From the IMG/VR virus record IMGVR_UViG_3300020201_000012, positions 1 through 64,000 of that record: 64,000 nt of DNA. One strand, 5' to 3'. Positions within the stretch are counted from its first letter, which is position 1; each line of letters starts with the position of its first letter. Position numbers and translations under genes: made by a program. Below, one piece after another: positions 17,271 through 53,550 of this stretch. The notes below the pieces were generated by a model. That model saw only the letters and a program-made list of their open reading frames with translations. It ran no database searches and had not been told where the DNA came from. This stretch comes from a virus (lineage: Duplodnaviria > Heunggongvirae > Uroviricota > Caudoviricetes).

Positions 17271-20162
17271 ATGAGCGACAAAGAATTAATATCTGAAAGT
17301 TCAAAGTATTTTCAGTCTTCATATCAAGAGATGATTTTTTATCAATTCTATTCCCGTTGGCAACCAGAAATAGGTCGTCGCGAAACATGGGTAGAAGCAA
17401 TAGACCGCTATATGGCTTACATGAAAGTCAAGCTCAACGATAAGCTAACAGAGACCGAATACAGTGAACTTCGCGAAGCTCTACTAAATCAGGAAATCTG
17501 CCCCTCAATGCGTCTTTTATGGTCAGCGGGTAAAGCTTGTGACGCGACTAATGTAACGGCATATAATTGTTTGACTGAAGAGACACCGGTACTCACAAAA
17601 GAACACGGCCTAATAATGCTAAAAGAGGCATACCAACACGGTGAGCTCAACCTCTTAGGTCACGACGGAGAGTGGCACAAGTCTGCTATAAACTATTTCG
17701 GGGAACAAGATGTAGTAGATGTTTTACTCACTAAGGGTAGAAGAAGAAAAATAATATCGGCGACGCTAGATCATAAATGGCTTATTGACAGCAAATTTAA
17801 AACTACAAAAGACCTAATAATCTCTACTAAAAAACAAACTGGCGACAAAATAATACCAGTTTTTGCACCCAAGCCACCTACAGACAATGAAGATTATCGT
17901 TTAGGTATTATGCACGGTATAATTTACGGAGACGGGACAACTACCTATTTCAACGAAAAGAAATTGGGCCATGTGATACGTCTGTGCAAAGATAGTAACG
18001 AATTACTAACCTTGTTTGATGGCTACAAAAGCTCCCAACCGCCCTCATACGGAGGCGATAATGTAGTATACCTTTACGATGAGTGGGCTAAAAACACGGA
18101 CTTAAAAGAGCCCCCTCAAAACGCTTCAAAATCTTACCTACTTGGGTTCATACGTGGCTGGTTTGCGGCAGACGGAACTGTTGGCAAGAATGGGCAGGCA
18201 TCTCTTGCAACACCAGTAGAAGGTCTAGAGTGGTTGCAAAAATACTCCGGGACTGTAGGGCTTCCAACAGGCGGTGTCGATAAGTATTCGGATGAAACAA
18301 ATTACGGACTCAGAAAACAAGACTTATTTAGGGTATACTTTTTTGATTCTGTGCTGTCAAAAGACGACATGTTGCTTTTCGCAAAAAAAGAAAGAGTCAA
18401 AGCAAAAAATAGTGCCTCTAGATATAGCCAGTGGACTGTATCTGACGTATCTAACAAAAGAAAAGAGCCCGTGTATTGTGCAACAGTTCCTGAAACTTCA
18501 ACTTTTGTACTCGATGAGGGTATAGTAACCGGAAACTGTGCTTATGTTGCCCCTATAAACTGGAAAGACCTATCAGAAATAATGTATGTCTCTATGTGCG
18601 GTGCCGGTTGTGGTTTCTCTGTAGAAAAAGAAAACGTATCACAGTTTCCCGTAATTAAAGAACAAACAGGCGAAAAGATAGAAGATATTCTAGTAGACGA
18701 TAGCCGTGATGGTTGGTGTGAAGCCTTTTACCTAGCTTGTGAAGCATGGACTAGTGGTAAAGACGTAGACATAGATTACTCGATGATACGTCCAGCAGGG
18801 GCTCGTCTTGAGACCATGGGCGGTCGTGCTTCTGGCCCCGACCCATTAATTGACCTAATGAAGTTTACCCGTGACAAGATGTTTAATGCTCAGGGTCGTC
18901 GACTTACCCCACTGGAATTACACGACATTATCTGCCAGATCGGTTTGATTGTTGTTGCTGGTGGTGTTCGTCGTTCTGCTCTTATCTCTTTATCCGAGCT
19001 CAAAGACGCAGACATGCGTGACTCAAAAAGCGGTGCTTTCTGGGAAAACAATGGTCAGCGTTCTATGGCTAACAACTCAGCTGTCTATGAATCAAAACCA
19101 TCTGCTGCCGACTTTCTAGAAGAATGGACTGCACTCGTTAAATCAGGTACCGGCGAGCGCGGTATATTTAACAGGGGTGAACTAGTCAATCAAGTACCAG
19201 ATCGTCGTTGGCAAAAAATAAAAGACCAAAAACAAGTCGGTGTAAATCCTTGTGGAGAAATATATTTGCGTTCTAAGCAATTTTGTAATCTTACATCAAT
19301 TGTTGTTCGACCTAAAGACACAATGAAAGACCTAAACCGCAAGATGCGTCTTGCTACGCTACTTGGTACATACCAAGCTACCCTTACTGATTTTGCCTAC
19401 TTAGGTGACGACTGGAAGACCAACTGTAGAGAAGAACAGCTTCTTGGTGTTTCTATCACCGGATACTTCGACAACGAAATTATTCGTAACGACGAGAACC
19501 TTGATGAGCTACGCGAAGAAAGTATCAAGACAAACGAAAAGTATGCAGAGCGTTTTGGTAGTAACCCATCTACTGCAATTACTTGCGTTAAGCCGCACGG
19601 CAACTCAGGGCAGCTTCTAGCTGTTGGTTCGGGTATGCACCCTTGGTTTTCTAAGTACTACATTCGTCGCGTTCGTATCAGCGTTAATGATCCACTTTTA
19701 GCAATGGTTAAAGACCAAGGCATACCGGTTCTACCAGAAGTCGGCTACTCTACTTCTACTGCATCGACTATGGTTATGGAATTTCCTATAAAGGCTCCTG
19801 AAGGTGCTCTGACCAATAAAGACGTAACTGCCATTGAAATGATGACAGAGTGGAAGCGCCTAAAAGAAAGGTTCACTGAACACAACCCTTCGGTAACTAT
19901 TTACGCTAGTGATGACGAGTGGTTAGATATTGCTAACTTTGTTTATAGTAATTGGGATAAAGTTGGCGGTCTGTCGTTTCTACCTAGAAGTGAACACGTT
20001 TACCAGCTTGCACCGTATGAAGAGATAACTGAAGAAGAGTATAACACGCGCAAAGCAGCCTTCACAGATATTGACTTCTCTAAATTGTCTGAATACGAAA
20101 AAAGTGATAACACGCAGGGTGCTAAAGAATTAGCTTGTTCAGGCGGAAACTGCGAAGTTTAA
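17271..20162 (+). CDS. nrdJ: Class II (adenosylcobalamin-type) ribonucleotide reductase NrdJ, interrupted by an intein
   Basis: Extein regions carry RNR-like motifs. A 323-aa insertion has intein hallmarks. The protein is 963 aa in total. Confidence 0.7.
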   Translation: MSDKELISESSKYFQSSYQEMIFYQFYSRWQPEIGRRETWVEAIDRYMAYMKVKLNDKLTETEYSELREALLNQEICPSMRLLWSAGKACDATNVTAYNCLTEETPVLTKEHGLIMLKEAYQHGELNLLGHDGEWHKSAINYFGEQDVVDVLLTKGRRRKIISATLDHKWLIDSKFKTTKDLIISTKKQTGDKIIPVFAPKPPTDNEDYRLGIMHGIIYGDGTTTYFNEKKLGHVIRLCKDSNELLTLFDGYKSSQPPSYGGDNVVYLYDEWAKNTDLKEPPQNASKSYLLGFIRGWFAADGTVGKNGQASLATPVEGLEWLQKYSGTVGLPTGGVDKYSDETNYGLRKQDLFRVYFFDSVLSKDDMLLFAKKERVKAKNSASRYSQWTVSDVSNKRKEPVYCATVPETSTFVLDEGIVTGNCAYVAPINWKDLSEIMYVSMCGAGCGFSVEKENVSQFPVIKEQTGEKIEDILVDDSRDGWCEAFYLACEAWTSGKDVDIDYSMIRPAGARLETMGGRASGPDPLIDLMKFTRDKMFNAQGRRLTPLELHDIICQIGLIVVAGGVRRSALISLSELKDADMRDSKSGAFWENNGQRSMANNSAVYESKPSAADFLEEWTALVKSGTGERGIFNRGELVNQVPDRRWQKIKDQKQVGVNPCGEIYLRSKQFCNLTSIVVRPKDTMKDLNRKMRLATLLGTYQATLTDFAYLGDDWKTNCREEQLLGVSITGYFDNEIIRNDENLDELREESIKTNEKYAERFGSNPSTAITCVKPHGNSGQLLAVGSGMHPWFSKYYIRRVRISVNDPLLAMVKDQGIPVLPEVGYSTSTASTMVMEFPIKAPEGALTNKDVTAIEMMTEWKRLKERFTEHNPSVTIYASDDEWLDIANFVYSNWDKVGGLSFLPRSEHVYQLAPYEEITEEEYNTRKAAFTDIDFSKLSEYEKSDNTQGAKELACSGGNCEV
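17568..18536 (+). mobile_element. Intein with LAGLIDADG homing endonuclease domain inside nrdJ
   Basis: Starts with Cys (CLTEETPVL…). Two LAGLIDADG-type motifs (RLGIMHGIIYGDGT and LLGFIRGWFAADGT). Ends …VTGN followed by a Cys +1 extein residue. Confidence 0.65.
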
Positions 20163-23906: not shown

Positions 23907-23934
23907 TTGACATAAAACGCTGATGGTGTATAAT
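23907..23934 (+). promoter_or_regulatory. Consensus sigma70 promoter (TTGACA-16-TATAAT) driving a 30-codon ORF and tRNA array A
   Basis: Perfect hexamers. Confidence 0.5.
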
Positions 23935-23940
23935 TAGGGT

Positions 23941-24033
23941 ATGGCAACTAGAATTATAGCCCGAACAACAGCAACCGCTAAGACGGCTACTTTTGCTATG
24001 CACGTAATGCGTGGAGGCAAAGCCAAACAGTAA
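23941..24033 (+). CDS. Small ORF (30 aa) between promoter and terminator
   Basis: MATRIIARTTATAKTATFAMHVMRGGKAKQ. Could instead be an sRNA. Confidence 0.15.
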   Translation: MATRIIARTTATAKTATFAMHVMRGGKAKQ

Positions 24034-24061
24034 ACCCTTATACTTTTCTATAGAATCTTAT

Positions 24062-24082
24062 AAGGGCAATCAGCCCTTTTTT
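24062..24082 (+). terminator. Rho-independent terminator (aagggc-aatca-gccc + T6)
   Basis: Hairpin plus T-run. Confidence 0.45.
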
Positions 24083-24091
24083 AAATATTAA

Positions 24092-24166
24092 GGGTCTGTG
24101 GCTTAACGGTCGAGCGGTAGCCTTTTAAGCTATTACAAGCGGGTTCGACTCCCGCCGGACCCTCCA
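24092..24166 (+). tRNA. tRNA-Lys(UUU)
   Basis: Hand fold: acceptor GGGTCTG/CGGACCC, anticodon loop CTTTTAA, T-loop TTCGACT, encoded CCA. Confidence 0.65.
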
Positions 24167-24171
24167 AATAA

Positions 24172-24247
24172 TGAAAATTAACTCAGCGATTAGAGTGCTT
24201 TCCTGATACGAAAGAAGTCCGAGGTTTGAATCCTCGATTTTCAACCA
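24172..24247 (+). tRNA. tRNA-Ile(GAU)
   Basis: Acceptor TGAAAAT/ATTTTCA, anticodon loop CTGATAC. Confidence 0.65.
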
Positions 24248-24250
24248 GAT

Positions 24251-24324
24251 GCCCCAGAAGCTTTGTGGCGAAGCACCAGTTTTGTAAACTGGGGAGTACA
24301 GTCCGATTCTGTGGTGGGGCTCCA
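24251..24324 (+). tRNA. tRNA-Thr(UGU)
   Basis: Anticodon stem CCAGT/ACTGG, loop TTTGTAA. Confidence 0.6.
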
Positions 24325-24332
24325 ATAAATAA

Positions 24333-24409
24333 GCGGGTATAGTGTTCAATGGTTAGCACGATTGCCTTCCAAGTAATAGGTCGGCGTTCGAATCGTCGTA
24401 CCCGCACCA
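24333..24409 (+). tRNA. tRNA-Gly(UCC)
   Basis: Acceptor GCGGGTA/TACCCGC, loop CTTCCAA. Confidence 0.6.
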
Positions 24410-24413
24410 ATAA

Positions 24414-24486
24414 GCTGTCGTGGGCGGAATCCCAGCAAGGTGTTCTAAGCCGACGCACGAAAGTTCGACTCTTTCCGACAGTACCA
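24414..24486 (+). tRNA. tRNA-like gene, anticodon unresolved
   Basis: Clean acceptor (GCTGTCG/CGACAGT), T-arm (GAAAG-TTCGACT-CTTTC) and CCA. The D and anticodon region is 3 nt short and will not fold into a canonical 5-bp/7-nt arm. The best fold gives loop CTAAGCC. Confidence 0.4.
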
Positions 24487-24542
24487 ATTTAAAAAAAGGA
24501 GCTAAAGATAACATACATATCAAGCCTAGTAACCAACGATCA

Positions 24543-24617
24543 CGGCGTATCGTCTAATGGTTAGGGCATCTGTCTTATATGCAGATTACGAAGGTTCAAT
24601 TCCTTCTACGCCGACCA
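24543..24617 (+). tRNA. tRNA-Ile(UAU)-like
   Basis: Acceptor CGGCGTA/TACGCCG. Anticodon stem TCTGT/GCAGA with loop CTTATAT, giving anticodon UAU, which is unusual in bacteria. Confidence 0.45.
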
Positions 24618-24621
24618 ATAA

Positions 24622-24692
24622 CATCCATTAGTTCAAGGGCAAGAATACACACCTACAGGTGTACGACAGCGGTTCAACTCCGTTATGGATAG
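24622..24692 (+). tRNA. tRNA-like gene with apparent 8-nt anticodon loop (ACCTACAG)
   Basis: Acceptor (6/7 bp), D-arm and T-arm are all present. The only consistent anticodon stem, TACAC/GTGTA, leaves an 8-nt loop. Confidence 0.35.
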
Positions 24693-24736
24693 TGTCCTTG
24701 GGGCCTCAACGACGTAAAACGTAAGGCCCACTAATT

Positions 24737-24813
24737 CGCTTCTTAGCTCATTTGGCTAGAGCACCTCGTTTACACCGAGGGGGTGGTAGGTTCAAATCCT
24801 ACAGAAGCGACCA
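24737..24813 (+). tRNA. tRNA-Val(UAC)
   Basis: Acceptor CGCTTCT/AGAAGCG, loop TTTACAC. Confidence 0.65.
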
Positions 24814-24818
24814 ATATA

Positions 24819-24893
24819 GCGGGGTGGAGCAGTGGTCAGCTCGGGTGCCTCATAAGCACCAGGTCGAGGGTTCGAATCCCTCCCCCGCAACCA
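24819..24893 (+). tRNA. tRNA-Met(CAU) (elongator, or Ile-lysidine type)
   Basis: Acceptor GCGGGGT, loop CTCATAA. Confidence 0.6.
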
Positions 24894-24897
24894 TAAT

Positions 24898-24967
24898 GCA
24901 CGGGTACAAGGTACAGATAGGCCTCATATGCCTTTCCTGATGGGCGCGATACCCATGCGTGCGACCA
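24898..24967 (+). tRNA. Degenerate tRNA-like sequence (CAU-type loop CTCATAT)
   Basis: Poor acceptor pairing (5/7), non-canonical T-loop CGCGATA. Possibly a pseudo-tRNA. Confidence 0.25.
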
Positions 24968-25042
24968 GAGCTGTTAGTTCAACGGATAGAATACTGGCCT
25001 TCGAAGCCATTGATGAAAGTTCGAATCTTTCACGACTCACCA
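24968..25042 (+). tRNA. tRNA-Arg(UCG)
   Basis: Acceptor GAGCTGT/ACGACTC (one mismatch), loop CTTCGAA, T-loop TTCGAAT. Confidence 0.5.
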
Positions 25043-25045
25043 TAT

Positions 25046-25121
25046 GGGGGATTCATATAATGTCTTATTATGCTTGCCTTGCACGCAGGTCATCAGAGTT
25101 AGATTCTCTGATCTTCCACCA
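25046..25121 (+). tRNA. tRNA-Ala(UGC)-like (atypical)
   Basis: Acceptor GGGGGAT/ATCTTCC with two G-U pairs, anticodon loop CTTGCAC. Non-canonical D-loop (no GG) and T-loop (TTAGATT). Confidence 0.35.
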
Positions 25122-25126
25122 ATTAC

Positions 25127-25201
25127 GGGTCTTATGCCGAACGGTTAGGCAGATGCCTCTTAAGCATCCCCGAGTGGGTTCAACCCCCACAGGGCCCTCC
25201 A
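25127..25201 (+). tRNA. tRNA-Lys(CUU)
   Basis: Anticodon stem GATGC/GCATC, loop CTCTTAA, T-loop TTCAACC. Confidence 0.6.
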
Positions 25202-25300: not shown

Positions 25301-26296
25301 ATGAAGCAAGAGCCAATTAAGTCGTGGGAGGCGGGAGCTTATAATAGGGAGACTAACGAATGGGTTCATACAACACTACACAGCTACGATCACACACACG
25401 GTGACGCAGACATACGAGACCTGCTAATAAGCAGGGCTGCACCGACGAAGATAACCCCGACAAAACGAGGCAAACCGTTCAGGTCAGATGCTAGAACTCT
25501 CGTGGCAGGTGACGCACAAATACCGTTCCAAGACCCAGAAGCTTTCGATCGTTTTCAGAGAACGGTAATAGAGGTACAGCCAGACAATATAGTATTTGTC
25601 GGCGATATGATTGACCTGCCCAGTATGAGCCGCTGGAGTCAACGTTCAGAATGGGTTGGCACGACACAGGGCGCAATAGACCAGTACCATTCGTTCTTGG
25701 CTCAGACAAGAGCTAACGCACCCAACTCGAACATATCGGTCGTGCACGGCAACCACGAACAGCGAATGGACGACTACGTTCGAAAAAACGCAGCAGAGGC
25801 TTTAGGGCTAAAGAGAGCAAACTCAGCAAAAGAGCTCGCAGTGTTGACGCTCCAATACCTCGTTAGGTACGACGATTTAGAGGTACACAGCGTAGACGGC
25901 TACCCAAACGGCACTCTGTGGCTTGAAGATAATATCAAAGCAACTCACGGAACCAATGTAGCAAAAGGTGGCAGTAACGCGGCCAAGTACCTCAGACAAG
26001 AAAGGGAAACCACTTTGTACGGGCATACACACCGCCAAGAATTAGCCTACAGAACGTTTCCTATGCGAGTCGGTGCTATAACGATTGCGGCCGCTTCTCC
26101 GGGTTGTCTAGCCCTTATAGACGGGACTGTGCCGGGGTTTCACCACACGGTCGATGCCCAGGGTGAATTAGTTAAAAAAGCAGAGGACTGGCAACAAGGA
26201 CTATTAGTAATTGACCACAACTCTGGAGTACACAACATAACACCAGTGTTATTCACTGAAGAAGGATTCTACTTAGATGGAAAGAGACATAAATAA
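25301..26296 (+). CDS. Calcineurin-like metallophosphoesterase
   Basis: Motifs VAGDAQ, FVGDMID, VHGNHE and GHTH match phosphoesterase motifs I-IV. Confidence 0.55.
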   Translation: MKQEPIKSWEAGAYNRETNEWVHTTLHSYDHTHGDADIRDLLISRAAPTKITPTKRGKPFRSDARTLVAGDAQIPFQDPEAFDRFQRTVIEVQPDNIVFVGDMIDLPSMSRWSQRSEWVGTTQGAIDQYHSFLAQTRANAPNSNISVVHGNHEQRMDDYVRKNAAEALGLKRANSAKELAVLTLQYLVRYDDLEVHSVDGYPNGTLWLEDNIKATHGTNVAKGGSNAAKYLRQERETTLYGHTHRQELAYRTFPMRVGAITIAAASPGCLALIDGTVPGFHHTVDAQGELVKKAEDWQQGLLVIDHNSGVHNITPVLFTEEGFYLDGKRHK

Positions 26297-34623: not shown

Positions 34624-34989
34624 ATGGACAACAAAAAGAAGCAGCTAGGTATAGCACCCAGTAATGCTAGAAATTTGTTGATACGAATGATAATATTTGA
34701 CTTTATAAATAAAGACAATATCGTTTGTTACCGATGCTATCTTGAGATGTCTCTAGAAGACTGAAGTATTGAACACAAAATACCCTGGTTACATAGTGAC
34801 AACCCAATAGAACTATATTTTGACCTTAAAAACGTTACTTTCAGTCATCTACGTTGCAATACACTTGCTGCTAGACCCGAAAAAAACAATACTATAAAAC
34901 ATGGTATATCGCGGTACAATAAATATGGTTGTAGGTGCAAAGTTTGCAAAAATACAAAAACAGTATTTAATAAAAAAAGAATAAGATAA
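34624..34989 (+). pseudogene. HNH homing-endonuclease gene with a single in-frame TGA at 34762-34764
   Basis: The 46 codons before the TGA carry CYRC. The 74 in-frame codons after it carry SIEHKIP…N…LRCNTL (HNH core) and C-terminal CRCKVC. Strong RBS aaaggtga. Either a pseudogenised homing endonuclease or a readthrough gene. Confidence 0.45.
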
Positions 34990-35277: not shown

Positions 35278-35353
35278 GTATCTATAGCCCAACGGCAGAG
35301 GCGTTCGGTTTAAGCCCGATAAAGTGTAGGTTCGAATCCTACTAGGTACACCA
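35278..35353 (+). tRNA. tRNA with anticodon UAA but a short (5-nt) variable arm (atypical Leu-type)
   Basis: Standard 76-nt layout: acceptor GTATCTA/TAGGTAC, loop TTTAAGC (U33, UAA, G37), T-arm GTAGG-TTCGAAT-CCTAC, discriminator A. Confidence 0.45.
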
Positions 35354-35479: not shown

Positions 35480-35944
35480 ATGGAACAAAAATATAACAAC
35501 ACAATAGAGTGGCTTGCTGGGCTGATAGAAGGTGAAGGAAGCTTCATAATTAAAAAAACGGGCGTATCAATAACTTGTCAGATGACAGATGAAGATGTCA
35601 TTAAAAACATAAAGAGTGTATTCGGCGGCGCAGTGTATTTCAACAAAAAAAGAAAAGAGCACTGGAAAGATTCTTGGAAATGGCAGATAAATGGTGAAGA
35701 TGCCTACAATCTGGCCGAACAGTTGAAGCCCCACATGTTCGGAAGAAGAACGCATCAAGTAAACAAATTGCTATATCAATATGAAAATTCGCCTAAAAAG
35801 CTACAACAACATAGAACTTCTAGAACAATACTTAAAGTCAAAGAACTGAGAGAATCTGGGTTATTGCACAGAGAAATAGCAGAAAAGCTAGGTGTTCATA
35901 GAACATTTGTGTCACACATATTGAGAGGAAAATACGGAGCGTGA
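35480..35944 (+). CDS. LAGLIDADG homing endonuclease (single-motif type) with C-terminal HTH
   Basis: LAGLIEGEGSF motif near the N-terminus. Free-standing between tRNA genes. Confidence 0.7.
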   Translation: MEQKYNNTIEWLAGLIEGEGSFIIKKTGVSITCQMTDEDVIKNIKSVFGGAVYFNKKRKEHWKDSWKWQINGEDAYNLAEQLKPHMFGRRTHQVNKLLYQYENSPKKLQQHRTSRTILKVKELRESGLLHREIAEKLGVHRTFVSHILRGKYGA

Positions 35945-35974
35945 AGAAGAAGTAGTCGATTCGCCAGCCTGTGA

Positions 35975-36009
35975 AGCCGGAGTAAGCCAGTGCAAGTCTG
36001 GTCATGCAC
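35975..36009 (+). other. tRNA 3'-end fragment (T-arm plus acceptor 3' strand plus CCA)
   Basis: GCCAG-TGCAAGT-CTGGT then CATGCAC-C-CCA, resembling the 3' end of tRNA-Leu(UAG) at 35250-35274. No matching 5' half was found. Confidence 0.3.
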
Positions 36010-36062
36010 CCCAAATAAAAAAGTACCTAATATAACCATAACTAGGAACTGAAAGGAGACTA

Positions 36063-37184: not shown

Positions 37185-37538
37185 GGGGCTGCCAAGGATT
37201 AGATTGCACGTTGAAAATCAGAAAAGCGAGTAGGTTGCTCACCTTTATAGGGCAAAAGACTTCTAATTGCAAAATTACTAGCATTTGTTAAGGAAAAGAT
37301 TGCTGACTTCGGTCGCGGTTTCAACCTGACACCAGCTTACGCTACGGCTTAAGCCACCCATCGTTCGATAGTAGTAGATCGAAAAGGGTGTTATACACTA
37401 CTGAGTTTTCTTGCCAGTCATAAAGGCAAGTGGTACGGGCGTTAAGATATTAATAGATGTTCTTATCTACAAAAGAACTACACTCGTAGAACACTGACAG
37501 AAGATTAGCAAGACGGGGGTTCGAATCCCCCCGGCTCC
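37185..37538 (+). ncRNA. ssrA: tmRNA (SsrA)
   Basis: 5' GGGGCUG pairs with 3' CGGCUCC. The 3' end GACGGGGGUUCGAAUCCCCCCGGCUCCA is the canonical tmRNA T-arm/acceptor. An internal reading frame ends …P-A-Y-A-T-A-UAA (stop at 37330-37332). Confidence 0.6.
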
Positions 37539-37553
37539 AAGAGTAATTAAGTT

Positions 37554-50934: not shown

Positions 50935-51167
50935 TATTTAGAGTGACAATGAAAGATACGGATGTTCTAGACGACGGAATCGATGAGGCGCTTGATAAGT
51001 GGTTTTTGACGAGTGGTTTACCAGAAGACGAGCAAGAGGAGATTCGTGAGATACGTCACGAAAAAGCATCAGACGTTGCAGGCCAGTGGTTTAGGTATGG
51101 TGAGTATTTAACTGTAGAAATAGATACAGAAAAAGAAACAATAAAGGTAATACGAAATGAAGTTTAA
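50931..51167 (+). CDS. Hypothetical acidic protein
   Basis: ORF only. Confidence 0.2.
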   Translation: MIFRVTMKDTDVLDDGIDEALDKWFLTSGLPEDEQEEIREIRHEKASDVAGQWFRYGEYLTVEIDTEKETIKVIRNEV

Positions 51168-52428
51168 AGAATTAGAGAACAAGAATTATGCAGCGACCAT
51201 AGTAAGAATTGATAGTCTGCACCCACTAGAGAATAGTGATAATCTCATCGGTACACCGCTTCTAGGTATGCAAGCTGTCGTTTCAAAAGACACGGAAGTG
51301 GGCACGATAGGCGTTGTTTTCGTAGCCGAGACTCAGTTGAGTGAAGAATACACAGCTAGAAATAACCTATTTCGTCACCACGAGTTTAATGAAGATAAAG
51401 ACAAGACTGGCTTCATAGAAGATAATCGTCGAGTGAAGGCTATTAAGTTGCGTGGCAGTAATTCTAACGCGTTATTTATGCCGCTTTCGTCTTTGGCTTA
51501 TACAAAAGTTGACCTTAGCGAATTCAAGATAGGTGATGCATTTGAAGAGTTAAACGGCTATGAGATTTGTAAGAAGTATCAAGTCAAATCTAAGTCTTAC
51601 CCGACCCATGAAAAAAATAAGCATAAAGTGTTCACCCGTGTCGATGAAAGAATGTTTCCGCGACATTATGATACTGACCAGTATTACAGAGTTCTTGATA
51701 CATTTAAGCCCTACACCGAGATTATTGTTACCCAAAAACTACACGGTACATTACTAAGGTTCTCAAATATTCCGGTTAAGCGTAAACTTTCACTAGCCGA
51801 AAAATGGGTGTCTAAACTAGGTGTTAAAGTACAGCAAGAAGAATATGCTCATATCTATGGGTCTAATCGTGTTATTAAAGATGCTAACAATAATAACCAA
51901 AGACATTTCTATGAACACGATATATGGACAGAAGCAGCTAAAAGATTTGACGATATGATTCCTGAAAACTTTGTTGTTTATGGTGAGTTAATCGGCTGGA
52001 CACCAGACGGTGCCCCTATTCAAAAGAACTATACATACCATGTGCCTCACCCGACTAACGAACTATACGTCTACCGAGTTGCTCAGATTAATGGGCAAGG
52101 TATCATGACCGACTTAAGTTGGGATCAGTTGAAAGAGTTCTGTAGAGATAGGGGTATGAAGCACGTACCAGAACTATGGCGTGGTAAACACCAAGACTTC
52201 AGCCCAGAAGAATGGCTAGACACAAACTATAGCGAGAAGTTGCATGGTGGTTATCCACAGGCAGTACCGCTAGACAAAGAGAGCCCGTGCGAAGAGGGTA
52301 TATGCATAAGAGTTGAAGGTCTAGCACCCTATATAGCAAAATTAAAATCACCAGAATTTTTCGCCCATGAAACAAAAATGATGGACGAAGAGGTACTGGA
52401 CATAGAAGAAGAAAGCAAGGTAGAGTGA
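51157..52428 (+). CDS. ATP-dependent RNA ligase, Rnl2-like nucleotidyltransferase domain with an N-terminal OB-like extension
   Basis: Motif I QKLHGT (compare T4 Rnl2 KIHGTN), motif III VVYGELIGW, motif IV EEGICIRVEG, motif V IAKLKS. About 190 aa N-terminal extension. Confidence 0.5.
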   Translation: MKFKELENKNYAATIVRIDSLHPLENSDNLIGTPLLGMQAVVSKDTEVGTIGVVFVAETQLSEEYTARNNLFRHHEFNEDKDKTGFIEDNRRVKAIKLRGSNSNALFMPLSSLAYTKVDLSEFKIGDAFEELNGYEICKKYQVKSKSYPTHEKNKHKVFTRVDERMFPRHYDTDQYYRVLDTFKPYTEIIVTQKLHGTLLRFSNIPVKRKLSLAEKWVSKLGVKVQQEEYAHIYGSNRVIKDANNNNQRHFYEHDIWTEAAKRFDDMIPENFVVYGELIGWTPDGAPIQKNYTYHVPHPTNELYVYRVAQINGQGIMTDLSWDQLKEFCRDRGMKHVPELWRGKHQDFSPEEWLDTNYSEKLHGGYPQAVPLDKESPCEEGICIRVEGLAPYIAKLKSPEFFAHETKMMDEEVLDIEEESKVE

Positions 52429-52652
52429 AATATAACGTAAAATTTTACCTAAATTCAGGGCTTGTGTATGAAATGGAGACAGACGACCATAGGAACTATC
52501 AAAAAATATTAAAGAAAAAGAGTAACGTTCTCCAGATTTTCTCGAAAGAAAACGAAGTTAAATATATCCCAGTCTCTAATATACAACTTCTCGAAGTTAA
52601 AGAGAACGATACGCTTAAAAGAAAAGAAAAACAAAATGAACAATCAAGTTAA
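52425..52652 (+). CDS. Hypothetical small protein
   Basis: ORF only. Confidence 0.2.
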   Translation: MKYNVKFYLNSGLVYEMETDDHRNYQKILKKKSNVLQIFSKENEVKYIPVSNIQLLEVKENDTLKRKEKQNEQSS

Positions 52653-53550
52653 AGTTATAATCACCAGAGGCTTACCCGCTTCTGGTAAAAGCACCTATGC
52701 CCGCGAGTGGGTTTCAGAAGATACTTCTAGTAGGGTTTGTATAGAAAAAGATATAATCAGAAAAAATGCCAGCCTATTTAAGGACGGCGTTTATACGCAT
52801 AAGCGTGGTGATGAATCAATAGTAATAAGAGAAAGAGATAAACTCATAAACCAATCTTTACAAGATGGCAAAAGTGTTATATCATCTGATACTAACCTAT
52901 TGCAGAAACACATTGCACAAATATCTTCTATTGCTAGAAAATATAATGCCGAGATAGAGGTTGTAAGTTTCTTAGACGTACCATTGAAAGAGCTTATTGA
53001 TAGAGATAAGAATAGGCAAAACTCAGTTGGAGAACAAGTGATTCGTAAGATGTTTCACGAACAAGTTAAGAAGATGCCAACCTTCTTGAAGTTTGACCCG
53101 AAGTTGCCAAATTGTGTTATTAGTGATTTGGATGGTACTCTGACCCTTGGCCCAAAAGATCGCTCGCCCTATGAGTGGGCAAAAGTAGGTAATGATGACC
53201 TTAACTTAGGTATATCACATATACTAGACGGCGTCAAAATTATAGACTATGCAAAGATATTTATATTCAGTGGTAGAAACGCTGTATGTCGCCCACAGAC
53301 AGAAGATTGGTTAGAGCGTAATGATATTGAGTATGACTTACTAGCAATGAGGCCACAGTTCTTAGAAGACGGTAAAACAGAAAACAACTTGTCAGATGAG
53401 ATAATTAAAGCCGACATGATTGAAAAACATATTCGCGGGAAATACAACATTCTTCTATGGTTTGATGACAGAATTAGAATTTCTACTATGCTTAGAGACG
53501 TCTACGGAATTAACGTCGCACAGCTTGGGGATACTCGTTTCGAATTTTAA
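52636..53550 (+). CDS. pnkp: Polynucleotide kinase-phosphatase (T4 Pnkp-like)
   Basis: N-terminal P-loop GLPASGKST. C-terminal HAD phosphatase motif ISDLDGTL with later DD motifs. Confidence 0.65.
   Translation: MNNQVKVIITRGLPASGKSTYAREWVSEDTSSRVCIEKDIIRKNASLFKDGVYTHKRGDESIVIRERDKLINQSLQDGKSVISSDTNLLQKHIAQISSIARKYNAEIEVVSFLDVPLKELIDRDKNRQNSVGEQVIRKMFHEQVKKMPTFLKFDPKLPNCVISDLDGTLTLGPKDRSPYEWAKVGNDDLNLGISHILDGVKIIDYAKIFIFSGRNAVCRPQTEDWLERNDIEYDLLAMRPQFLEDGKTENNLSDEIIKADMIEKHIRGKYNILLWFDDRIRISTMLRDVYGINVAQLGDTRFEF

Follow-up and report, generated by a model that had tools for sequence, protein, structure and literature searches.

A probable compact tRNA-Arg(UCU) gene and a neighbouring tRNA-like gene in the tRNA array of a tailed phage, both of them unlikely suppressors

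Two irregular tRNA-like genes, gene A (24414-24486) and gene B (24622-24692), are located in a dense tRNA cluster of a tailed phage genome, and we consider it probable that gene A is a tRNA-Arg reading AGA and AGG, that gene B is a non-decoding RNA derived from a tRNA, and that neither of them acts as a suppressor. The stretch of DNA analysed (hereafter the window) comprises positions 1 to 64,000 of the IMG/VR record IMGVR_UViG_3300020201_000012. This part of the phage genome encodes a tape-measure protein, a class II ribonucleotide reductase, a DnaB-like helicase, an RNA ligase and a polynucleotide kinase-phosphatase, as well as about 27 tRNA-type genes grouped in clusters. One of these clusters, array A (24092-25201, spacers of 2-5 nt), harbours both genes. 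In an earlier note on this DNA they had been put forward as candidate suppressor or special-function tRNAs. The suppressor role is contradicted by homology and synteny, which give gene A the anticodon UCU, and by the lack of a conserved triplet and of CCA in gene B; the looser idea of a special function holds in an unforeseen sense, since gene A is one of a recurring group of phage tRNA-Arg(UCU) genes whose D-arm is reduced. Judged from its sequence, gene A is very likely a working arginine tRNA (UCU) in which the D-arm has shrunk. Its parts are as follows.

24414-24486, plus strand: gene A, predicted compact tRNA-Arg(UCU), 73 nt including CCA, 3 nt below the canonical orthologues
24414-24420 / 24476-24482: acceptor stem, 7/7 pairs (G1·U72 and six Watson-Crick pairs)
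24421-24434: D hairpin UGGG-CGGAAU-CCCA, containing GGA (G18 G19 A20)
24439-24441 / 24449-24451: anticodon stem, 3 pairs, with a possible outer extension at 24435-24436 / 24455-24456
24442-24448: anticodon loop GUUCUAA, with U33 at 24443, anticodon UCU at 24444-24446 and A37 at 24447
24459-24475: T-arm, 5-bp stem and loop UUCGACU, which fits the consensus UUCRANY
24483 and 24484-24486: A73, followed by CCA

The earlier note had rightly described gene A as 3 nt short, with a clean acceptor stem and T-arm, but had placed the abnormality in the anticodon arm. The deficit lies wholly between the acceptor and anticodon stems, in a D region of 16 nt compared to 18-21 nt in canonical tRNAs. A canonical D-arm, defined by a stem of 3-4 bp, a loop of 7-11 nt and the preceding linker nucleotides 8 and 9, is not formed; instead, a 4-bp hairpin with a 6-nt loop starts at position 8. 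The spacing between the anticodon loop and the 3' end follows the canonical scheme (5 + 5 + 17 + 7 + 1 + CCA), and CCA is encoded by 12 elements of array A, namely 11 standard tRNAs and gene A. In the register fixed by its orthologues, gene A exhibits the 7-nt loop, U33 and purine 37 of a decoding tRNA. At sequence level it also carries the bacterial arginine identity set, which consists of A20, C35, U/G36 and A/G73 (PMC9976931), in the form of A20 after G18 G19, C35, U36 and A73.

Gene A is orthologous to the canonical tRNA-Arg(UCU) of sister phages, both by position and by sequence. Related contigs were recovered with the metallophosphoesterase gene located directly after array A (25301-26296) as anchor. 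In these relatives the array follows the order Lys(UUU), Ile(GAU), Thr, Gly, Arg(UCU), Ile(UAU), Val, Met, (Met), Arg(ACG/UCG), Ala, Lys(CUU). In the window the Arg(UCU) slot is occupied by gene A, and ARAGORN called no other Arg(UCU) gene there. The anchor protein is 100% identical in the window and in the loci L098 and L097, and all three carry gene A in this slot. An alignment of gene A and six canonical orthologues showed the invariant loop GTTCTAA in all 7 sequences, and GGTGTTCTAAGCC is common to gene A, L099 and L104. The invariant loop together with the canonical spacing to the 3' end therefore gives gene A the anticodon UCU with U33 and A37. The non-canonical type was present in the distant relatives L108 and L109-L111, too; their acceptor and T stems differ but are fully paired, and canonical Arg(UCU) is likewise missing from these arrays. 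AGA is the top Arg codon of the phage (309/819).

Other routes to relatives yielded little. Megablast of the array against 50,697 GenBank phages returned only a 91-nt tRNA match with 81% identity, and exact IMG/VR scans with the T-arm plus acceptor of gene A and with its anticodon arm gave 0 matches. With the 3' end of Ile(UAU) as anchor we obtained 36 loci, nearly all of them unrelated. A metagenome scan with the neighbouring phosphoesterase gave 54 loci, the sole close one being L007, an incomplete contig, and the upstream open reading frame (ORF) of 111 aa led to no additional close relatives.

A pattern scan of IMG/VR (13-nt core plus GTTC) revealed 57 loci with 56 distinct tRNA-like sequences. 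The loop GUUCUAA occurs in all 56, the set having been chosen by a pattern containing that loop. Their D regions comprise 18-21 nt in 30 cases and only 12-17 nt in the 26 sequences referred to here as compact. Of the compact sequences, 26/26 have GGA in their D region as well as a T stem of 5 bp and a T-loop fitting UUCRANN; all seven acceptor pairs are formed in 25/26, and most of them end with A/G73 and CCA. The helices of the compact family are kept by compensatory changes, i.e. they are under family-wide selection. In a MAFFT alignment of the 26 sequences, pairing amounts to 97.3% in the acceptor and T helices and part of the anticodon helix, and two-sided changes affect 12/16 pairs (95 cells); the observed values were attained in 0/500 shuffles, and pairing in slid controls was 34-54%. 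In constrained folds a short hairpin or connector recurs in place of the D-arm, and the anticodon stem is often extended past a purine-rich internal loop. The outer pairs of this extension covary, being GC/GC in the window as well as in L124, CC/GG in L151 and, by hand reading, in L109, and CU/AG in L139.

The compaction concerns mainly one anticodon. According to an anticodon-blind custom scanner, compact D regions are present in 17/26 UCU genes versus 4/308 genes with other anticodons at the same loci, and no array with a compact gene contains a canonical Arg(UCU) besides. The pattern is rare in the genomes of 185,579 species; compact copies mostly come from arrays of 19-21 tRNAs within contigs of metagenome-assembled genomes. 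In the solitary copy L175 the D and anticodon region is nearly identical to that of gene A, and the acceptor and T stems are wholly different and fully compensated.

Several observations weigh against a working gene A. The family was sampled with a pattern and is a biased sample, its 13-nt core being fixed, so that the anticodon arm of the family is invariant by construction. Within the gene A subtype itself (window, L098, L124, L175) this arm is nearly invariant as well; with so little variation, only the wider family, synteny and the purine-37 rule can tell UCU from AAG. The anticodon stem of the window subtype has 3 standard pairs, with A·A and A·G at 27-43 and 28-42. In a 141-nt search with Rfam RF00005 gene A reached 22.5 bits, less than the gathering score of 29, and only acceptor and T-arm were aligned. 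The unconstrained minimum free energy (MFE) fold (-22.6 kcal/mol) is no cloverleaf and buries UCU. Furthermore, a 13.5-kb search with default filters gave no Rfam tRNA match for gene A, and ARAGORN with defaults gave no call, as for 23/26 compact sequences. At ARAGORN thresholds of 80-85% gene A appears as Leu(AAG) with the loop CUAAGCC, at 90-95% it is not called, and the mitochondrial mode (-mt) was the sole mode to call it tct, as a 'D-loop' (D-replacement-loop) tRNA.

Alternatively it might be that gene A is a decaying tRNA-Arg(UCU) pseudogene that suffered a deletion in the D-arm and whose acceptor stem, T-arm and CCA are merely undegraded yet. The low Rfam score, the short anticodon stem and the non-cloverleaf MFE fold would fit such a decay, and decayed tRNA fragments do exist in such arrays, e.g. 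in L002 (5458-5520), where the acceptor stem is lost. However, 26 distinct sequences exhibit this architecture although compensatory changes have made their acceptor and T stems different, GGA is always retained and the compact gene is always the sole UCU gene of its array. In L175 a gene A-like D and anticodon region is joined to completely re-paired outer stems, and the compaction is UCU-specific. All this is not the pattern expected from independent decay. Given this strong covariation and the lack of a paralogue, we regard a pseudogene as unlikely.

That gene A reads codons other than AGA/AGG, as an amber (CUA) or Leu(AAG) tRNA or as a UCU tRNA charged with another amino acid, is very improbable. 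The stem with the loop CUAAGCC proposed in the earlier note can be drawn and corresponds to the ARAGORN call at 80-85%, and its fold (-18.3 kcal/mol) is just about 2 kcal/mol worse than the cloverleaf in the UCU register (-20.4 kcal/mol); energies alone, that of the MFE fold included, are indecisive for the choice of register. This AAG register puts C, a pyrimidine, at position 37, and it cannot form in L109/L110 or L108. The triplet CUA is indeed present, within UUCUAAG, but is out of the anticodon register: reading it would need the pairs U28-C38 and G27-G39, which are impossible beside the invariant GGU/GCC core. ARAGORN labels the canonical L113 orthologue 'tRNA-Pyl(cta)'. We rejected this label as evidence of suppression, as the same register ambiguity applies and in L113 the UCU register is spaced canonically, whereas the CUA register contains an internal mismatch. 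A different amino acid is opposed by the full set of Arg identity nucleotides and by the lack of the long variable arm for SerRS, and stop-codon reading by the lack of stop-codon recoding in the window.

For gene A as an AGA/AGG-reading tRNA-Arg, the short hairpin UGGG/CCCA (loop CGGAAU) right after the acceptor stem would replace the D-arm, and the anticodon stem would consist of three standard pairs, purine-purine mismatches and maybe two added outer pairs. The RNA would be cut out of the array transcript as its neighbours are, charged by the host ArgRS via A20, C35, U36 and A73, and would decode AGA/AGG, thereby supplying the top Arg codon of the phage. Ribosome, EF-Tu and HisRS of E. coli tolerate an engineered D-arm-less tRNA (PMC11551756), which makes the function of a tRNA of this type plausible. 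Only tentatively do we extend this to all A-type genes, which may represent natural tRNAs with reduced or absent D-arm that are active in bacterial translation, nearly restricted to tRNA-Arg(UCU) and missed by default finders. The anticodon restriction suggests a selective cause, such as the evasion of a host nuclease or turnover pathway recognising the D-arm or elbow of tRNA-Arg(UCU). Alternatively, it suggests a special relation with ArgRS, the reader of A20 in the D loop.

Gene B, as far as its sequence tells, is a tRNA-derived, cloverleaf-shaped RNA that probably does not decode. The following elements belong to it.

24622-24692, plus strand: gene B, tRNA-like, without CCA; acceptor stem with 6/7 pairs and a C1·A72 mismatch
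Within gene B: D-arm GUUC-AAGGGCAA-GAAU, canonical
24653-24658: 6-nt loop CUACAG of the anticodon hairpin according to ARAGORN and Infernal (4 nt in the MFE fold)
Within gene B: T-arm AGCGG-UUCAACU-CCGUU, 5/5 pairs, one of them G·U
24693-24736, plus strand: hairpin 3' of gene B, stem 24701-24706 / 24724-24729, inner stem 24709-24711 / 24720-24722

ARAGORN reports gene B as 'tRNA-???' with a two-base anticodon, i.e. a 6-nt loop CUACAG, and Infernal with Rfam gives the same loop at 35.4 bits (above the gathering score of 29), with the mismatch at 1-72; larger Rfam searches with default filters gave no match. The description of gene B as tRNA-like and odd holds, but the claim that it folds only with an 8-nt loop does not: this is one of three registers, with energies of -16.0 (4 nt), -12.9 (6 nt) and -13.2 kcal/mol (8 nt). 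Here, too, CUA occurs but out of register, at positions 32-34 of the 6-nt loop.

Gene B and the 44-nt hairpin co-occur in L097, L099 and L113, upstream of tRNA-Val. The hairpin lacks a trailing T-run and is therefore not an intrinsic terminator. In L099 (95% anchor identity) gene B exhibits four structure-neutral substitutions and the loop CUAUGG, and the hairpin is identical. In L113 (84% anchor identity) a diverged gene B cloverleaf was found at the same place, with about 50% sequence divergence in the tRNA-like part, a degraded acceptor stem and a 6-nt loop GUGAAA. Its D, anticodon and T stems covary, and its hairpin is about 90% identical, one U-A pair having changed to A-U. The loop hence varies among homologues (CUACAG, CUAUGG, GUGAAA). 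L098, although its flanks are 100% identical to the window, has a single unrelated tRNA-Val(UAC) in place of gene B, hairpin and tRNA-Val, which indicates that the gene B module is dispensable and behaves as an exchangeable cassette. Without a conserved triplet, without CCA and in a genome that needs no suppression, gene B is probably not a decoding tRNA. Most likely it has been retained along with the 3' hairpin upstream of tRNA-Val, either as a relic or as a structural or processing module.

Among 1205 tRNA calls, 6-nt loops occur in 2 distinct kinds, both without CCA. The second kind is unrelated to gene B and resides in another phage array (L125 977-1045 / L146 6369-6437, loop CAGAAA). A BLAST search of gene B against the 1205 called tRNAs gave no hint of its ancestry, exact IMG/VR scans with its T-arm, D-arm and hairpin gave 0 matches, and no further Rfam family was found for it. 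A pairing of the gene B D loop with the downstream UGUCCUUG, present in one MFE fold, is not kept in L113 and was dropped.

In the diverged L113 copy the arms of the cloverleaf and the loop length of 6 nt have been kept, which hints at a selected role. Gene B and its hairpin might form a selected non-coding module, either a tRNA mimic that signals RNase P or RNase Z to process the array transcript or a decoy for a host nuclease that targets tRNAs. This would be consistent with the covarying stems and the conserved hairpin in L113, and with the RNA ligase and polynucleotide kinase-phosphatase of the phage, two tRNA-repair activities; moreover, phage tRNA arrays have been proposed to act against host tRNA-cleaving defences (PMC10264068). 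On the other hand, there are only three independent sequences, the L113 copy has a degraded acceptor stem, L098 does without the module, and neither an Rfam family nor further IMG/VR copies were found. We regard a selected module as possible but doubtful. Under the tentative reading of the A-type genes given above, gene B could be a companion tRNA mimic instead of debris. A functional special tRNA, i.e. a frameshift suppressor with an 8-nt loop or a stop-codon suppressor, is hardly credible. The ACACAC repeat permits the 8-nt register and the CUA string is kept in the window and L099, but two programs give 6 nt and the MFE fold 4 nt, CCA is missing, C1 and A72 are mismatched, the loop is not conserved in L113, the gene is absent from the near-identical L098 and the window shows no need for frameshift or stop suppression.

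The window contains no suppressor tRNA and no sign of a genetic-code change. ARAGORN called no UCA, CUA or UUA anticodon in the window, even with relaxed thresholds, in agreement with the earlier failure to place UCA by hand. The in-frame stop codons invoked as a context for suppressors do not support this role: ORF coverage rises from 82.5% to only 84.3-88.0% if TAG, TGA or TAA is read through, and for none of the stop codons is there an excess of in-frame junctions in the window, in which TAA is used 47, TGA 28 and TAG 9 times. An HNH-like endonuclease ORF between tRNA-Phe and tRNA-Cys (34624-34986, plus strand) contains one in-frame TGA at about 34778 by hand count (...LEMSLED*SIEHKIPW...). 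This is probably what was meant by in-frame stops, and it suggests a single instance of a pseudogene or of read-through instead of genome-wide recoding.

With default settings ARAGORN called 24 tRNAs in the window, to which Rfam added tRNA-Ala(UGC) (25046-25118), a weak His-like match (35937-36010) and a transfer-messenger RNA (tmRNA). A tRNA-Tyr was not found in the window. The genes that concern us here are listed below together with further features of the window.

23907-24084, plus strand: sigma-70-type promoter, small ORF and hairpin region before the first tRNA of array A
23941-24033, plus strand: 30-codon ORF, peptide MATRIIARTTATAKTATFAMHVMRGGKAKQ*
24543-24617, plus strand: canonical tRNA-Ile(UAU), ARAGORN and Rfam (62.5 bits), kept in relatives
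24897-24967, plus strand: third non-canonical tRNA-like gene, loop CUCAUAU (anticodon CAU), between Met and Arg(UCG)
25046-25121, plus strand: tRNA-Ala(UGC), Rfam 42.8 bits; no ARAGORN default call, called at the 95% threshold
35278-35353, plus strand: class-I (short variable arm) UAA tRNA, 56.2 bits, A73, D-arm GCC-CAACGGCAGA-GGC
35937-36013, plus strand: His-like tRNA with a GUG loop, Rfam 30 bits, overlapping the end of a LAGLIDADG endonuclease ORF
37185-37540, plus strand: tmRNA, Rfam RF00023, 62.8 bits versus a gathering score of 47, E = 3.6e-22; not reported by ARAGORN
51157-52428 and 52636-53550, plus strand: RNA ligase (PF09414) and polynucleotide kinase-phosphatase (AAA_33 + HAD_PNKP), a pair representing two activities of the T4-type tRNA repair pathway

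The anticodon UAU at 24543-24617 and the class-I body with UAA at 35278-35353 had both been recognised correctly by hand. ATA is the top Ile codon of the window (648/1214), which fits the encoded Ile(UAU). Its counterparts in relatives (L002 5225-5298, L099 513-586, L104 166-242, L106 52-125, L107 about 1985-2058, L108 515-588) exhibit the non-consensus T loops GGCAGAA, AGCGUUA, AUCGUUA and AUCGAUA, whereas the window's own Ile(UAU) is canonical. Several of the relatives' D loops lack GG (AAUAGUA, AAAAGUA), which suggests that the elbow contacts of these putative tRNAs co-vary. The UAA tRNA is a short tRNA-Leu of a type that is very common in phages: in the viral loci fetched (L114-L170), 51 Leu calls were short (class I) versus 45 long (class II), and the short genes have in common A73 and the D-arm UAGCCCAAYGGCAGAGGC, which is the type of the window's UAA tRNA. 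In Streptomyces a type I tRNA-Leu is charged by the bacterial LeuRS (PMC6614811). A hand fold of the His-like gene gave an 8-bp acceptor stem with 1 mismatch, a 4-bp T stem, C73 and CCA, apparently matching the 8/4 shape of the phage tRNA-His described by Mukai et al. (PMC5389517).

The third non-canonical gene (24897-24967) was absent from the earlier note. It has a compact D hairpin GUAC-AAG-GUAC, a non-consensus T loop CGCGAUA and the 3' end ACCA. Neither ARAGORN with defaults nor Rfam called it, and ARAGORN -mt reported a D-loop Met(cat). Its T stem covaries with those of homologues in L099, L104 and L112 (AUGGG/CCCAU versus GUGGG/CCCAC), and its orthologue in L109/L110 is a second tRNA(CAU), which is canonical and has identical acceptor ends.

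Upstream of array A the promoter is perfect (TTGACA-16 nt-TATAAT, 12/12), and a terminator-like hairpin with a T-run (24062-24078) directly precedes the first tRNA. The 30-codon ORF between them is kept in L002, L107 and L109 with an invariant C-terminus IRGGKAKQ, and the window's copy includes cognate codons for all tRNAs of array A. A role as leader-peptide attenuator sensing the array tRNAs was nevertheless abandoned, as the variable part has other residues in L107 and L109 and only IRGGKAKQ is common.

Two further observations concern the ribonucleotide reductase and a related contig. Phage homologues of the reductase (17271-20162, plus strand, 963 aa) span only about 66% of it, in two pieces, which suggests an insertion of about 300 aa, possibly an intein. 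In the 90.6-kb related contig L102, a 218-nt sequence (1986-2203) between tRNA-Gly and tRNA-Arg(UCU) of the tRNA array matches the whole model of bacterial RNase P RNA class A (RF00010, 107.9 bits versus a gathering score of 100, E = 2e-34). It would represent an RNase P RNA that is encoded by a phage and strongly reduced, and it has no counterpart in the window.

The canonical bacterial tRNA-Arg(UCU) is represented by argU in E. coli. With the canonical genes of L099, L104, L107, L102 and L002, gene A shares the slot, the loop GUUCUAA, G18 G19 A20, C35, U36, A73, CCA, the 7-bp acceptor stem and the T-arm. It differs from them by its D region of 16 nt instead of 18-21 nt with a hairpin abutting the acceptor stem, by the purine-purine mismatches at 27-43 and 28-42 and by scores below the Rfam and ARAGORN default thresholds. 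Gene B resembles the species 1 and 2 RNAs of T4, which are non-decoding, tRNA-sized structured RNAs in a phage tRNA array, in being a structured RNA of tRNA size embedded in such an array, although no sequence relationship to them came to light; provisionally, we consider it an ordinary oddity of phage tRNA arrays.

Deviant tRNAs in phage clusters overlooked by standard finders have been described before, namely the irregular 8/4 tRNA-Ser and tRNA-His (PMC5389517). In those the deviation affects the acceptor/T branch (8/4 or 9/3) and other anticodons, whereas in gene A it affects the D-arm. The engineered D-arm-less 'mini HisT' is synthetic and its use in vivo required a pnp mutation, and in the same study all known bacterial tRNAs are stated to be canonical (PMC11551756); the A-type genes, in contrast, would be natural and phage-borne examples. 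A 2020 review of natural non-canonical tRNAs reports D-arm loss in mitochondria only and does not mention phages (PMC7609411). In the literature searched, which was covered in part, we came across no account of phage tRNAs whose D-arm is reduced, and the compact tRNA-Arg(UCU) genes provisionally appear to be a recurrent, overlooked phage family. If they are functional, phage tRNA inventories based on default ARAGORN or Rfam systematically undercount AGA decoders (23/26 missed here), and their restriction to one anticodon poses a testable question concerning tRNA-targeting defence, ArgRS recognition or tRNA turnover.

A natural parallel in shape is the metazoan mitochondrial tRNA-Ser(AGY/AGN) with the anticodon GCU or UCU, which has lost its D-arm (PMC7609411, PMC4013460). 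Like these tRNAs, gene A has a reduced or replaced D-arm and a possibly extended anticodon stem, and would read AGN codons. The phage genes differ in keeping a consensus T loop and the GG of the D region, so that the elbow contact could persist; they have Arg instead of Ser identity elements, would operate in bacterial translation and are evolutionarily unrelated. If the compact genes are functional, phages already employ tRNAs with a reduced D-arm on bacterial ribosomes.

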